Below, piece after piece: positions 13,437-29,376 of a stretch of DNA of 29,701 nucleotides (within the stretch, counting starts at the first letter, position 1; each line of letters starts with the position of its first letter). Position numbers and translations under genes: made by a program. The notes under the pieces are model-generated. The model was not told where the DNA came from and made no database searches. It saw nothing but the letters and a program-made list of their open reading frames with translations. Source of the DNA: an uncultured bacterium (GTDB taxonomy: Bacteria; Edwardsbacteria; AC1; EtOH8); contig CALGNM010000404.1 in the NCBI GenBank assembly GCA_937958665.1, positions 1-29,701 of the forward strand. Direction: 5' to 3'.

Positions 13437-15151
13437 TGCAGCACTATCTGCCTCTCGGTGGTGTCGTTCTCAGAGATTCGAATGGTTTCCCTCCACTCCC
13501 GGCCCTCCGGGCCGGCCAGTCTTAACTCGTGCTCCCCGATGGACAGCCTCAATGGCTGGCCCAGCGGAGTGGTCCCCTGTTCGGCCCCGTCCAGGTAGAC
13601 CCTGGCCCAGGGCACCACGCTCAACTTCAGGTAGCCGAAGGCCTCCGGCAGGCTCAGGGCCAGCAGAGTGGTGTCGCCCGGCAGCACCTCCACCTCCTGG
13701 CGGTACTCCCGGCGATTGGGGTGCCTCAGCACCACTTGGTGCTTGCCGGCTTCCAGCATGACCGGAGCCCTGATCGGTGTCCGGTCGATGAACCGCCCGT
13801 CGATGTAGACCTCGGCCCAGGGGCTGATGGAAAACTTGAGATATCCCGGGGGCAGCACCACCGGCGACAGTTCGATGTTCAGCGCCAGCTGCTGGTTGGC
13901 CTGGAGGGAGAACTCCCGCTTCTGCTCCTGGTATCCTTGGCTCTTTACCGACAGGCGATGCCGGCCCGTGTCCAGATTGCTTATGGCCAGCGGGACCTTC
14001 CCCCGGTAGTGCCCGTCCAGATACACCAGGGCCCCGGCGGTGCCCGACACCTCCAGGGTCTGCCGGTTGGGAGGAGTCTCCTCTTTGATTGCCAAACTGC
14101 TGTCCGGAGCCATAACCTGGGCGGGATTCTCCGCCCGGGACCTCAGGTAATCTCCAACCCACCTGGCCCCCAGGTAAAACAGGGCGGCAGCAGCTCCGGC
14201 CAAAACCAGGTACATGACCAGCCTTCGCAGGAAGATATCCCAGCGTTCCTGGCGGGCCAGCTTGGCAATCAGCTCTTGGTCCACCTGGCGGGGCTGATAG
14301 GTCCCCGGGTCGGCCAGATAGCGGGCCAGGGCCTCGCCGCTGGTCAGGGAATAAGGCTCCAGATCGGCCAGCACCTGCTCGGCCCGGTGATAGCGCCTAA
14401 AGCGCTCCTTCTCGAGCATCCGGAAGGCCACCCCATCCACCCCCGGGGGAATCGACGGATCCTCCTTGGACAGCCGGCTGGGTGAATGCCTCAAGGTGCG
14501 GTCTATGCTCTGGGAGTGGGTCTCTCCGGCAAAGGGATTGGTGCCGGTCAGCAATTGATAGAAGATCACCCCGGCCGCGAACAGGTCCGAGGCCTCGTCC
14601 CCCTTTTGGCCTTTTATCTGCTCCGGGGCCAGATAGGCCGGGGTTCCCACAAAGGTCCCGGGATCGGTGATGGTCAGGGCCTCCTTGGCGTAGGCCAGAC
14701 CGAAGTCGGTTATCTTGACCTGCCCCGATTTGGAGACCATGACATTGGCCGGCTTGACATCCCGGTGTACCACCCCCTTGGAGTGGGCATGGCCCAGGCC
14801 GGCGGCCATCTGCCGGACGACATACACCGCCAAGGTCAGGGGCAACCGGCCCACCCGGTCCAGCAGGTCCTTCAGCGAACAGCCGTCGATGTGTTCCAGC
14901 ACAATGTAATAGGAATCGTCCAGGACAAAGTAGTCGATGATGTCCACGATGTTGGGATGGCGCAGCCCACCCAGAATGTTGGCTTCCCGCTCAAAACGCT
15001 TGACGAACTCGGCGTCCCGGGAAAGATGGGGATGGAGCTGCTTGATGACCACCGGACGTCCCATCTCCCGGTGGCTGCCCAGGTAGATGGTGGCCATGCC
15101 CCCGGTGGACAGCAGGCGGCTGGCCCGGTATTTGCCGATATCCTTGTTCAC
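13433..15151 (-). CDS. Membrane Hanks-type Ser/Thr protein kinase with three extracytoplasmic PEGA domains
   Basis: STGGMATIY loop, VVIK, HRDVKPANV, DFGLA, GTPAYLAPEQ; TM LVMYLVLAGAAAALFYLGA; three PEGA-like repeats (ALVYLDG, AEVYIDG, ARVYLDG). Confidence 0.95.
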   Translation of the reverse strand: MNKDIGKYRASRLLSTGGMATIYLGSHREMGRPVVIKQLHPHLSRDAEFVKRFEREANILGGLRHPNIVDIIDYFVLDDSYYIVLEHIDGCSLKDLLDRVGRLPLTLAVYVVRQMAAGLGHAHSKGVVHRDVKPANVMVSKSGQVKITDFGLAYAKEALTITDPGTFVGTPAYLAPEQIKGQKGDEASDLFAAGVIFYQLLTGTNPFAGETHSQSIDRTLRHSPSRLSKEDPSIPPGVDGVAFRMLEKERFRRYHRAEQVLADLEPYSLTSGEALARYLADPGTYQPRQVDQELIAKLARQERWDIFLRRLVMYLVLAGAAAALFYLGARWVGDYLRSRAENPAQVMAPDSSLAIKEETPPNRQTLEVSGTAGALVYLDGHYRGKVPLAISNLDTGRHRLSVKSQGYQEQKREFSLQANQQLALNIELSPVVLPPGYLKFSISPWAEVYIDGRFIDRTPIRAPVMLEAGKHQVVLRHPNRREYRQEVEVLPGDTTLLALSLPEAFGYLKLSVVPWARVYLDGAEQGTTPLGQPLRLSIGEHELRLAGPEGREWRETIRISENDTTERQIVLQ

Positions 15152-15525
15152 GCCCGAGGTTTCAGGGTTTCTATCTGCGACAGGTCCAGCAGCAGGTACA
15201 TCTTGGTGTCAGCCATCCCCAGGGCGTAGAACAGGTTGATGCCGCTGAGCATGGAGGGCCACACCGCCAGGGTCTGGTCATCCAGGTCAACCAATCCCAC
15301 AATGTGGTCGACCAAAAGCCGGATAGCCTGTCCGTTCCATTCGCAGTTGATGGCCCGCAGCCCCTCGGAGCTAGCGGCCCCGAAGGCCCGGCACAGGTTG
15401 TATTCCTGGACGGCCGATTGGCCGGAACCCCCGGAAGGGGAATGCTCTCCCCGCCCCACTGAGCTGACGTACTCGGCGGGAAGCCCCAGTCGGTGTTCTC
15501 CTATGGCAAAGGCCAGCACCCTCAT
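15148..15525 (-). CDS. Divergent CheW-like protein
   Basis: VLAFAIGEHRLGLPAEYV, RLLVDHIVGLV and LLLDLSQI match CheW beta-strand patterns; middle region degenerate; 125 aa. Confidence 0.7.
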   Translation of the reverse strand: MRVLAFAIGEHRLGLPAEYVSSVGRGEHSPSGGSGQSAVQEYNLCRAFGAASSEGLRAINCEWNGQAIRLLVDHIVGLVDLDDQTLAVWPSMLSGINLFYALGMADTKMYLLLDLSQIETLKPRA

Positions 15526-15540
15526 CTTAAGAACCTTCGA

Positions 15541-27963: not shown

Positions 27964-28301
27964 AGCATTTCCATCAGGCGCTCCAGGCTGGCCTTCATCT
28001 TGATGGACACCAGGCCCAGGTTGGCCCCGGCCTCGGTGATCACGATCAGGATTCCGTGGCGGGCGCACAGGAAGATGATGTTGCCGCTGCTGGCCATCAG
28101 CTGTACCCCGTGGACCTCCTCCTCCCGCCCGGCCGCCAGGGCCTTGGCCACCTGGTTGAAGATGTCGGCCACCATGGCGCTGATGGTCTTCTCCTCCATC
28201 CCGGACATCAGGTTGGAGGCGATCACCAACCCCTCCTGGTCGATCACCAGGCTGCCTCGCACCTGTGGGATGTCGTTGATCTGGTTGAGGACGTTCTTCA
28301 T
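27960..28301 (-). CDS. Stand-alone Roadblock/LC7 domain protein (MglB/MglC-like)
   Basis: IPQVRGSLVIDQEGLVIAS, SAMVADIF and ANLGLVSIKMK; 113 aa. Confidence 0.88.
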   Translation of the reverse strand: MKNVLNQINDIPQVRGSLVIDQEGLVIASNLMSGMEEKTISAMVADIFNQVAKALAAGREEEVHGVQLMASSGNIIFLCARHGILIVITEAGANLGLVSIKMKASLERLMEML

Positions 28302-28314
28302 ATCTCAAAACGGG

Positions 28315-29376
28315 TTATTGTTGAGAAAGTGCGTTCAGGCGCTCCACCGCCCGCTTGAGGTTGACCGCCACCAGGCCCACCTTGGCCGAGCTGTCGGCGG
28401 CCACGCTCAGCACCTGGCTACCGGCCCGGCTTAGAAAGATCTTCTCGTTCCTGGTGTCGATCACCGCCCTCTCCAGGTTACCCAGCTTGATCTTCTGCAT
28501 GGCCTGGCTGGCGATGGAGAACACCAGCGAGGCCAGGGCCCCGGCCGCCTCCTCGTCCAGCGGGGCCGCCCCCGGGGCCAGGGCCGAGGCCACCGGATAG
28601 CCCGACTCGTCGGCCAGCAGGGCCGAGTGCACTTGGGGGGTTTTGGCCACCTCGCCCAGTATCCGGGCATAGGCTCCGGACTCCTCGGCGGTGGGGGCCG
28701 GCTGCTCCCTGGCCGGCTCGGCCGGCGGGGATGGCGGCTCGGCGGCCGCCGTTACCGAAGCGGGCGACGGCTCCTGGTATTCCAGAATCTCGGCCCGGGC
28801 CTCGCCGGGCTCGGCCCTCCCGGCCGACTCGGCGGCCAGGACCATCATGGCCTTGGCCCCCTGATGGAATTCTTCGGGAGGCTCGATCATTGGCGGCGCC
28901 GGCTGCTGGTCACTTGCCCTGGCCTCCGGCGCCGGCTCAGCCGGGGGCTCCGTTACCTGCTCCGCCGGAGCCGGCCCCGGCGATACGGCAAGCGGCTCTG
29001 TGGCCGTTAAAGATTCCGGGGCTAATTCCTCTGGTTTCTCCCGGGCCGGCTCCAGGGTTGACTCTCCGGCCCGGTCCAGCTCGGCCAGCAACTTCTTGGC
29101 CAAAGCGTTCTCGGGATGGGATTTAAGGACCCTGGTCAGCTCGGTTCGGGCCTGCTGGATGTCCCCCAGGGCCCGGCAGCACTGGGCCAGCACCAGCCGG
29201 CCCTCGGTGTTCTCGGGATGGGACTCCAGCCCGTTCTGGCAGATGCTGAGGGCCTCCTGGAACAGCCCGTTTTCCCGGTAGAAATCGGCCAGCGAGGCGA
29301 ACAGCAGCGATGAGGGGTCGTTCAGCACCTGGTCCGAGAATTTTTTGACGCTGTCCGAAGACATATCTGACAACAT
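28315..29376 (-). CDS. TPR - Pro/Ala/Glu-rich linker - Roadblock/LC7 fusion protein
   Basis: N-terminal TPRs (FASLADFYRENG, GRLVLAQCCRALG), low-complexity linker, C-terminal Roadblock (VHSALLADESGYPVAS...AKVGLVAVNLKRA); GGGGAG RBS before ATG. Confidence 0.88.
   Translation of the reverse strand: MLSDMSSDSVKKFSDQVLNDPSSLLFASLADFYRENGLFQEALSICQNGLESHPENTEGRLVLAQCCRALGDIQQARTELTRVLKSHPENALAKKLLAELDRAGESTLEPAREKPEELAPESLTATEPLAVSPGPAPAEQVTEPPAEPAPEARASDQQPAPPMIEPPEEFHQGAKAMMVLAAESAGRAEPGEARAEILEYQEPSPASVTAAAEPPSPPAEPAREQPAPTAEESGAYARILGEVAKTPQVHSALLADESGYPVASALAPGAAPLDEEAAGALASLVFSIASQAMQKIKLGNLERAVIDTRNEKIFLSRAGSQVLSVAADSSAKVGLVAVNLKRAVERLNALSQQ

Follow-up and report, generated by a model that had tools for sequence, protein, structure and literature searches.

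The small-GTPase and chemosensory genes packed into one gene string of an uncultured Edwardsbacteria bacterium raise two questions: whether they belong to one pathway, and whether this pathway dispenses with the kinase CheA. The string lies on the 29,701-nt contig CALGNM010000404.1, analyzed here at its full length and referred to as the window; it is the whole of contig C404 of a 2.05-Mb metagenome-assembled genome (MAG) of 411 contigs (GCA_937958665.1). An earlier note, made from the letters of the window, had proposed a CheA-less Che block fused to genes for the polarity GTPase MglA, Roadblock proteins, a DnaA-derived ATPase and a PATAN-tetratricopeptide repeat (TPR) protein. The analysis returns a different picture: the unit is a chemosensory control of a small-GTPase polarity switch, with one component of no known role, the DnaA-derived ATPase, and its CheA is encoded on another contig. 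The window probably covers two-thirds, on the 3' side, of an operon-like supercluster of 21 genes and roughly 23 kb.

The missing CheA lies beyond the contig end

Pfam searches of all genes of the window return neither a CheA nor a CheY. The two ends of the window (bases 1-49 and 29654-29701) are Illumina TruSeq adapter, which also terminates contigs throughout the MAG (386 of the 411, 222 of them at both ends; median contig 3.8 kb), and this untrimmed adapter probably explains the extreme fragmentation of the assembly. The only CheA of the genome is encoded by C107, a 5-kb contig with the gene order CheW-CheY-CheA(P1-P5)-CheC, and comprises Hpt, P2, dimerisation, HATPase and CheW domains, without a receiver. 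To tile the contigs, the proteins encoded by L002, an uninterrupted Candidatus Edwardsbacteria locus on a 645-kb contig, were used as tblastn queries. C107 stops inside an 895-residue TPR protein, at residue 497; the 2.2-kb contig C347 encodes the remainder (residues 497-895) together with residues 1-271 of another protein, the first of two PATAN-TPR proteins (PATAN-TPR-1), while window positions 29652-29419 correspond to residues 328-405 of the L002 orthologue of the latter. Adapter is present at all four contig ends involved in the C107/C347/C404 junctions; no exact end overlap was found among these three contigs, the ends having only the adapter in common.

Because the contigs end in adapter and CheW-CheY-CheA-CheC is carried on the tiling contigs, the CheA-less reading is rejected. 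Its appearance is an artefact of adapter-terminated breaks that split the cluster over three contigs of the MAG, and a genuinely CheA-less block is ruled out for this genome by the adapter ends, the C107/C347 tiling and the intact clusters of relatives. With the C107 part joined by synteny, all six core Che components (CheA, CheW, CheY, MCP, CheR and CheB) are present in the cluster: two methyl-accepting chemotaxis proteins (MCPs), CheW, CheR, CheB and CheD are encoded in the window, and CheW, CheY, CheA and CheC on C107. This is the only CheA/CheR pathway detected in the genome. For annotation, the lesson is that adapter-terminated breaks should be checked for before a core gene is taken to be missing near the end of a MAG contig.

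The supercluster in Edwardsbacteria

The tblastn maps covered 26 loci. In the unbroken Edwardsbacteria loci L002-L006 and L008-L015, from metagenomes and MAGs, the gene order is fixed: cheW, cheY, cheA, cheC, the 895-residue TPR gene, PATAN-TPR-1, TPR-Roadblock, Roadblock, mglB-like, mglA, DnaA-like, PATAN-TPR-2, cheR, cheD, cheB, TPR, cheW, MCP, MCP, cheW-like. The homologous clusters thus normally include cheA and cheY, as CheW-CheY-CheA-CheC lies upstream in every unbroken locus, a finding that the earlier note had itself named as speaking against its proposal. Across the phylum as defined by GTDB, the C-terminal half of the DnaA-like protein is present in 18 of the 19 genomes, and CheA in all 19, with exactly one copy in 17. 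In all nine genomes in which one contig carries both genes, CheA is encoded on the same strand as the DnaA-like gene, 9.2-12.2 kb upstream; in the other nine phylum genomes, mostly fragmented and including this MAG, the two genes are on separate contigs. This near-universal presence in the phylum is new.

One-locus and two-locus forms in other phyla

The order recurs outside Edwardsbacteria, so the conservation of gene order in other genomes, on which the earlier proposal depended, is borne out. In the Gemmatimonadota locus L007, the order from cheC to the TPR gene is as in Edwardsbacteria. A genome scan with the middle domain of the DnaA-like ATPase, built on 11 closer sequences (Gemmatimonadota left out), also detects the family in Candidatus Stahlbacteria and in Cloacimonadota. 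A seven-gene core, mglA / DnaA-like / PATAN-TPR / cheR / cheD / cheB / TPR, is kept in Edwardsbacteria/UBP2, Gemmatimonadota, Stahlbacteria and Cloacimonadota; its TPR gene follows cheB in Edwardsbacteria, Stahlbacteria and Cloacimonadota and is found three genes downstream of cheB in L007. Since the order recurs in at least four phyla, the arrangement is far beyond chance.

Stahlbacteria and Cloacimonadota carry the genes at two loci, a form that is new. Locus B comprises mglA / (mglB) / DnaA-like / PATAN-TPR / cheR / cheD / cheB / TPR, with unrelated flanks. Locus A comprises (MCP) / cheW / cheY / cheA / cheC / big TPR / TPR-Roadblock / Roadblock; in Cloacimonadota only, TPR-Roadblock is also preceded by a PATAN gene and Roadblock followed by an mglB-like gene. 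All five Stahlbacteria and Cloacimonadota genomes searched possess a single CheA, at locus A, and in the one genome checked per phylum a single CheR copy exceeds the family cut-off and resides in the core. Both loci mix Che and Mgl-type genes, which is hard to explain unless all of them serve one pathway.

Two Cloacimonadota loci (L023:5818-8718 and L022:6217-9117) also contain a PilT-like ATPase gene with the gene of the biotin carboxyl carrier on one side and that of biotin carboxylase on the other. This trio is immediately upstream of the cluster mglA in L023; in L022, where no mglA was detected, it directly precedes the DnaA-like gene.

Gene content of the window

Gene identities were assigned by Pfam and PDB-sequence searches, which confirm the previously proposed gene list (Roadblocks, MglA, DnaA-derived ATPase, PATAN-TPR and Che block). 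The features are, with window coordinates:

29654-29701, no strand: Illumina TruSeq adapter closing the contig; the break is technical and marks no biological boundary
29407-29653, minus: 3' end only of PATAN-TPR-1 (orthologues ~410-420 residues), from tblastn against the L002 orthologue; the N-terminal part is on C347
28315-29376, minus: TPR-Roadblock fusion, 353 residues, with a Pro/Ala/Glu-rich linker (Pfam TPR_19 1.5e-12, Robl_LC7 3.4e-9); kept in all four phyla
27960-28301, minus: minimal Roadblock/LC7 protein, 113 residues (Pfam Robl_LC7 7e-9; 81% identity to the L002 orthologue); overlaps the next gene by 4 nt
27397-27963, minus: MglB-like Roadblock protein, 188 residues (E 2.2e-19 to M. 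xanthus MglB 6h5b_B; Pfam Robl_LC7)
26761-27354, minus: group-1 MglA small GTPase, 197 residues (E 7.9e-81 to M. xanthus MglA; TVPGQ and DRT motifs)
25379-26746, minus: DnaA-derived AAA+ ATPase, 455 residues (Pfam Bac_DnaA 1.1e-37; PDB DnaA domain III 1.6e-37)
23729-25348, minus: PATAN(DUF4388)-TPR-2, 539 residues (Pfam DUF4388 3.9e-36 and TPRs); orthologues in the four phyla are always directly upstream of cheR
25016-25180, minus: MshEN-like tandem 24-residue motif within the PATAN domain, candidate c-di-GMP (cyclic di-GMP) site (regular-expression match to the published motif)
22924-23745, minus: CheR methyltransferase (Pfam CheR 4.7e-59); single CheR match in the genome
22415-22909, minus: CheD deamidase (Pfam CheD 5.1e-33)
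21738-22385, minus: low-GC (36%) signal-peptide open reading frame (ORF) between cheD and cheB, no Pfam match; non-conserved insertion
20669-21715, minus: CheB methylesterase with receiver domain (Pfam CheB_methylest 2.3e-66, Response_reg 1.9e-23)
19769-20629, minus: TPR protein, 286 residues, closing the seven-gene core (Pfam TPR)
19352-19768, minus: CheW (Pfam CheW 3.1e-19)
17285-19327, minus: HAMP-containing MCP, 680 residues (Pfam MCPsignal 1e-44 and HAMP)
15541-17295, minus: second HAMP-containing MCP, 584 residues (Pfam MCPsignal 2.9e-37)
15148-15525, minus: divergent CheW-like protein, 125 residues (Pfam CheW 0.0034, below cut-off; orthologues with weak CheW matches)
13433-15151, minus: PEGA Ser/Thr kinase (Pfam Pkinase 2.4e-52 and PEGA); 4-nt overlap with the CheW-like gene

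All genuine genes of the window are on the minus strand, and gaps do not exceed 42 nt from 29407 down to the Ser/Thr kinase gene. The described string of sixteen tightly packed co-directional genes therefore stands as to strand and packing, its span holding 15 genes; the 17-nt overlap of the PATAN gene with cheR is exact, at 23729-23745. The gene of the 113-residue Roadblock protein is masked by a 303-residue frame in a longest-ORF list, and alignment with orthologues resolves two genes overlapping by 4 nt. The HAMP domains of the MCPs are preceded by 220-310 N-terminal residues.

The ORF at 21738-22385 contrasts by its GC content with the cluster (63.5%) and is missing from L004-L006, L008 and L013. 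The cheD-cheB junction is a recurrent insertion site: L002 and L003 (L003:14667-15428) hold there a low-GC (33%) signal-peptide ORF unrelated to that of the window, L012 displays a 2.3-kb gap (L012:13810-16165), and most other loci are without an insert. Downstream, four genes trail the cluster with overlaps or short gaps (window 10209-15151), encoding the PEGA Ser/Thr kinase, a family-less 237-residue protein, a CarboxypepD_reg-domain protein and a GAF sigma-54 activator. The kinase gene trails the cluster in L005, L006 and L008, not in L004, and is a lineage-specific appendix. Further along the window (5114-6219), a radical SAM domain (5620-6219) and a SPASM domain (5114-5641) are carried by two overlapping ORFs, consistent with a frameshift splitting one gene.

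A dedicated MglA and its partners

The cluster MglA matches M. xanthus MglA (6h17_A) over residues 1-191 and exhibits the YTVPGQ and DRT motifs. It shows the features of group-1 MglA, namely the TVPGQ G3 motif, the intrinsic Arg beside the G2 Thr and the similarity to M. xanthus and T. thermophilus MglA (motif definition: PMC4316618). The MglB-like protein, with its Roadblock/LC7 fold, its similarity to MglB and a gene adjacent to mglA, 42 nt upstream, is a candidate GTPase-activating protein (GAP) of this MglA, as judged from sequence and position. A canonical mglB-mglA pair is encoded elsewhere in the genome, on C223 (L037:1042-2133); the MglA of this pair, at 310 bits, is closer to M. xanthus MglA than that of the cluster, at 273 bits. 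In a maximum-likelihood tree, the cluster MglAs of Edwardsbacteria, Gemmatimonadota and Cloacimonadota form one clade (support 100/98), apart from the other MglAs of the same genomes. Judging from this tree, the cluster MglA is a dedicated paralogue and not the canonical copy; its own clade is new. A third MglA copy, truncated by a contig end, is found beside a glycogen synthase gene on C117 (L038:23-409).

The 895-residue protein encoded upstream, on C107 and C347, is made up of ~16 TPRs. SgmX, the MglA effector of Myxococcus, is built in this way.

A DnaA-derived ATPase without DNA-binding domain

Residues 1-238 of the protein encoded between mglA and the PATAN gene correspond to DnaA domain III, the PDB alignment ending at residue 238, with 33-34% identity to domain III of B. 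subtilis DnaA. Walker A (GxGKTH), Walker B (DD), the box VII Ser-Arg and the sensor-II RELEG are invariant in 40 aligned homologues, and Foldseek superposes the AlphaFold2 (AF2) model on B. subtilis DnaA domain III with a TMt of 0.89 and a root-mean-square deviation (rmsd) of 2.1 A. A Pfam search of the protein returns neither Bac_DnaA_C nor DnaA_N, and a genuine DnaA domain IV is encoded on C77. As domain III is present and domains I and IV are absent, the protein is a DnaA-derived ATPase and not DnaA.

Beyond the AAA+ module, the model comprises a confident helical middle domain (residues 257-375) and a disordered Pro-rich linker (377-440), followed by a C-terminal helix with an invariant W-P..R-L-M-E-D/E motif. 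Outside Edwardsbacteria, two AAA+ modules flank the middle domain (four Gemmatimonadota-type homologues in a first alignment and 10/10 sampled representatives), and the single-module Edwardsbacteria form is therefore derived. Foldseek with the full model returns AAA+ matches only, none covering the middle domain.

The middle domain (P0121 residues 254-371; window 25634-25987) is one copy of a ~95-residue unit whose profile matches 538 library proteins. Giant proteins of up to 3,143 residues (P0127, P0128, P0129 and P0157), without Pfam family, contain up to 27 tandem copies of it, and one of the giant repeat proteins ends in C-terminal zinc ribbons. A protein atlas search with one repeat protein returned no match.

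A candidate c-di-GMP site in the second PATAN-TPR protein

The PATAN domain (DUF4388, PF14332) of PATAN-TPR-2 is a full profile match (1-122 of 122, E 3.9e-36). Its AF2 model (predicted local distance difference test, pLDDT, 89) exhibits four helices inserted at residues 58-120. The published MshEN pattern consists of two tandem RLGxx(L/V/I)(L/V/I)xxG(L/V/I)(L/V/I)xxxxLxxxLxxQ motifs of 24 residues each, which form a four-helix unit. Two motifs of this type occur at residues 57-80 and 88-111, within the helical insert, with the substitutions F7 in the first and I17 and I21 in the second; the MshEN proposed earlier for the PATAN-TPR protein is thereby recovered, the tandem motif at 25016-25180 fitting the published pattern. 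MshEN-like motifs are kept in Edwardsbacteria, Stahlbacteria and Gemmatimonadota. A local superposition of the PATAN model on MshE bound to c-di-GMP (5htl_B) spans 58 columns at 36% identity, with an rmsd of 1.7 A. Foldseek with the PATAN model reports no global match, only the local match to the N-termini of MshE and PilB being informative; weak matches to GATOR1/SEA components, with rmsd of 16 A or more, were dismissed. Each genome encodes 9-14 GGDEF domains. Motif and predicted fold thus make the MshEN-like insert a plausible candidate c-di-GMP site, and the suggested c-di-GMP input is plausible to the same degree.

Type IV pili as the likeliest output

The flagellar export-gate protein FlhA was found neither in five Edwardsbacteria genomes (four of them 97-100% complete) nor in five Stahlbacteria and Cloacimonadota genomes. 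PilM and 9-12 T2SSE (PilB/PilT-type) ATPases are present per genome, including tandem PilB-like and PilT-like genes. PATAN is the output domain that binds PilB1 and PilC in cyanobacteria (Synechocystis), MglA controls pilus polarity in Myxococcus, and in the SgmX/SopA study both PATAN proteins and TPR proteins of M. xanthus are among the candidate regulators of type IVa pili. Because FlhA is absent, pilus genes are present and both the PATAN and the MglA precedents concern pili, we infer type IV pilus polarity as the output: by analogy, the cluster, as the only chemosensory pathway of the lineage, would likeliest steer it through its dedicated MglA paralogue. The non-flagellated, single-pathway background is new, and it makes the output easier to read, as no flagellar gene was detected and a single Che pathway mostly exists in the Edwardsbacteria, Cloacimonadota and Stahlbacteria genomes searched.

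In two Edwardsbacteria genomes (G004:C3:17883-23526 and G007:C1:17569-23216), three PilB-like genes stand in tandem beside a PilT-like gene, which is unusual for a 2.6-Mb genome.

Proposed mechanism and alternatives

We infer the order of signalling, the part played by c-di-GMP, the docking of TPR proteins by the ATPase tail and the output as follows. The MCP-CheW-CheA array would phosphorylate CheY, and phosphorylated CheY (CheY~P) would act on the MglB/Roadblock GAP-type regulators and on the PATAN-TPR and TPR scaffolds, shifting the site of the GTP-bound cluster MglA. MglA-GTP, together with the SgmX-like all-TPR effector and the PATAN domains, would then choose the pole for type IV pilus extension, a pole-selection step that c-di-GMP may modulate at the MshEN-like insert. 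The DnaA-derived ATPase, in which the ATP-binding, arginine-finger and sensor-II residues are kept, may form an ATP-dependent oligomer acting as a hub or timer, and may dock TPR partners through its tethered acidic C-terminal helix. Adaptation would be carried out by CheR, CheD, CheB and CheC.

Taken as a whole, unit and mechanism together, this pilus-polarity pathway is in our judgment reasonably probable. More tentatively, the DnaA-derived AAA+ protein might have been recruited to partner the dedicated MglA in a nucleotide-dependent manner before several FCB-group phyla diverged, and might constitute, with the three Roadblocks, the c-di-GMP-sensing PATAN-TPR protein and the TPR-docking tail, the converter of CheY~P into a choice of pole; we regard this conversion as possible but doubtful. 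If true, the replication initiator's ATPase module would be reused outside DNA replication, and the cluster would encode a chemosensory-polarity machine with its parts hard-wired together, the separate Frz and MglAB of Myxococcus being just one variant of it.

Several points weigh against the proposed pathway. The C107-C347-C404 join is based on synteny, with ~40-55 codons absent between C347 and C404. The long-branched Stahlbacteria cluster MglAs are unresolved in the tree. The MshEN spacer is 7 residues long, not 5, and the motif is partly degenerate in Cloacimonadota. The role proposed for the ATPase is conjectural, and the pilus output is drawn from the absence of flagella, the presence of pili and analogy. 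No pilus genes are found next to the cluster in Edwardsbacteria. Lastly, cultured Gemmatimonas is flagellated and also carries the cluster, and the output need not be alike everywhere.

These last two observations favour an output other than motility, such as exopolysaccharide or biofilm formation, cell-division polarity or development, as in Dif, Wsp or Che3-type pathways, and so do the c-di-GMP-type motif and the Ser/Thr kinase, sigma-54 activator and glycan-modification cluster downstream in the window. The kinase, however, is unconserved outside part of the phylum, the cluster is the sole Che pathway detected in non-flagellated, piliated genomes, and the MglA and PATAN precedents both point to pili, so that such an output appears unlikely.

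Alternatively, MglA, the Roadblocks, the DnaA-like ATPase and PATAN-TPR could position, assemble or partition the chemosensory array at the pole, like the ParC/ParP or PpfA systems, and not form the output of the pathway. A nucleoside triphosphatase inside a che operon is the usual signature of such systems, the core sits with CheR, CheD and CheB, enzymes that work on the array, and TPR and Roadblock proteins are scaffolds. Yet the known array-positioning ATPases are ParA-type, neither AAA+ nor Ras-like, group-1 MglA is known as a motility-polarity switch and PATAN domains bind the pilus motor; moreover, the canonical mglBA pair is retained too, which argues for a specialised signalling paralogue. 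Array positioning is thus quite improbable.

Finally, a CheA/CheY-less receptor-adaptation block signalling to MglA through ATPase/TPR scaffolds, as the window without either gene and the mglA-to-cheB core not flanked by cheA in Stahlbacteria and Cloacimonadota might suggest, is scarcely credible in view of the adapter at the window end, of CheW-CheY-CheA-CheC on the tiling contigs and in all unbroken Edwardsbacteria loci, and of the single CheA, beside the partner Roadblock/TPR genes, in each Stahlbacteria and Cloacimonadota genome searched. What endures of the earlier proposal that receptors and adaptation enzymes feed a small-GTPase switch is the deeply conserved genetic linkage; the bypass of CheA-CheY falls.

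Comparison with known systems

No description of a Che-MglA-PATAN-DnaA-like unit was found in the searchable part of the literature, outside which many subscription journals lie, only occasional MglA-PATAN proximity, and no paper there connects a DnaA-like gene with MglA. Table S2 of Wuichet & Sogaard-Andersen 2014 gives, for G. aurantiaca GAU_1409, the row "PATAN>MglA>-PATAN>", a trio of mglA, an unnamed gene and a PATAN gene, with no comment and no che genes. PATAN proteins annotated with GspE_N (PF05157), a domain found typically at the N-terminus of PilB-type ATPases, are mentioned in a preprint by Han et al. (2021). The term "undescribed" thus suits the unit, but not its mglA-PATAN trio or the PATAN-GspE_N combination. 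The conversion of a phosphorelay into polarity has been worked out only in Myxococcus, where the two modules are encoded apart and the steps between them are still under debate. In the cluster, the candidates for such connections (three Roadblocks, two PATAN-TPR proteins, two TPR proteins and the DnaA-derived ATPase) share one operon and are kept in at least four phyla, which provides a short, explicit list for tests.

The closest characterised system is Frz with MglA/MglB/MglC/RomR-RomX of M. xanthus, in which a Che-type pathway is likewise coupled to a group-1 MglA accompanied by its GAP MglB and one more Roadblock paralogue, in which the TPR effector SgmX links MglA to type IV pili, and in which TPRs are associated with CheR (FrzF). 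In Myxococcus, however, the Che and Mgl modules are at separate loci, whereas here they form one gene string or two mixed strings. The CheA of the cluster contains P2 and no fused receiver, CheC and CheD are present, and there is no FrzZ- or RomR-type receiver in the cluster, only the single-domain CheY and the receiver of CheB; the DnaA-derived AAA+ protein and two PATAN-TPR proteins are added. The cluster is therefore not of the Frz type, which is defined by the CheA-CheY hybrid FrzE, the dual-receiver FrzZ and the cytoplasmic FrzCD.

The Gemmatimonadota supercluster shares the cheC-to-TPR order, the MglA paralogue clade and the PATAN-TPR protein with its MshEN-like motif. It differs in its ATPase, as the Edwardsbacteria protein has a disordered Pro-rich linker in place of the second AAA+ module, which was lost, and in that MCPs and the Ser/Thr kinase are appended in Edwardsbacteria, a host lineage without flagella. 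As compared with DnaA and Hda, the ATPase retains the domain III fold and all nucleotide-handling motifs, but it is devoid of domain I and of the DNA-binding domain IV, its Walker A-B span is shortened, and its gene stands between mglA and the PATAN gene.

In the cyanobacterial Tax/Pix systems, with their PatA-type PATAN-REC regulators, a PATAN protein also links a Che-like pathway to the PilB/PilC motor. The PATAN domain of the cluster is instead fused to TPRs, not to a receiver, and therefore cannot be phosphorylated directly; MglA, Roadblock and AAA+ proteins are present here. Lastly, the actinobacterial conservons (CvnA-D) combine an MglA-family GTPase and a Roadblock protein in an operon with a histidine-kinase-type sensor, but use a group-2 MglA and a membrane histidine kinase, with no Che array and no PATAN, TPR or AAA+ genes.

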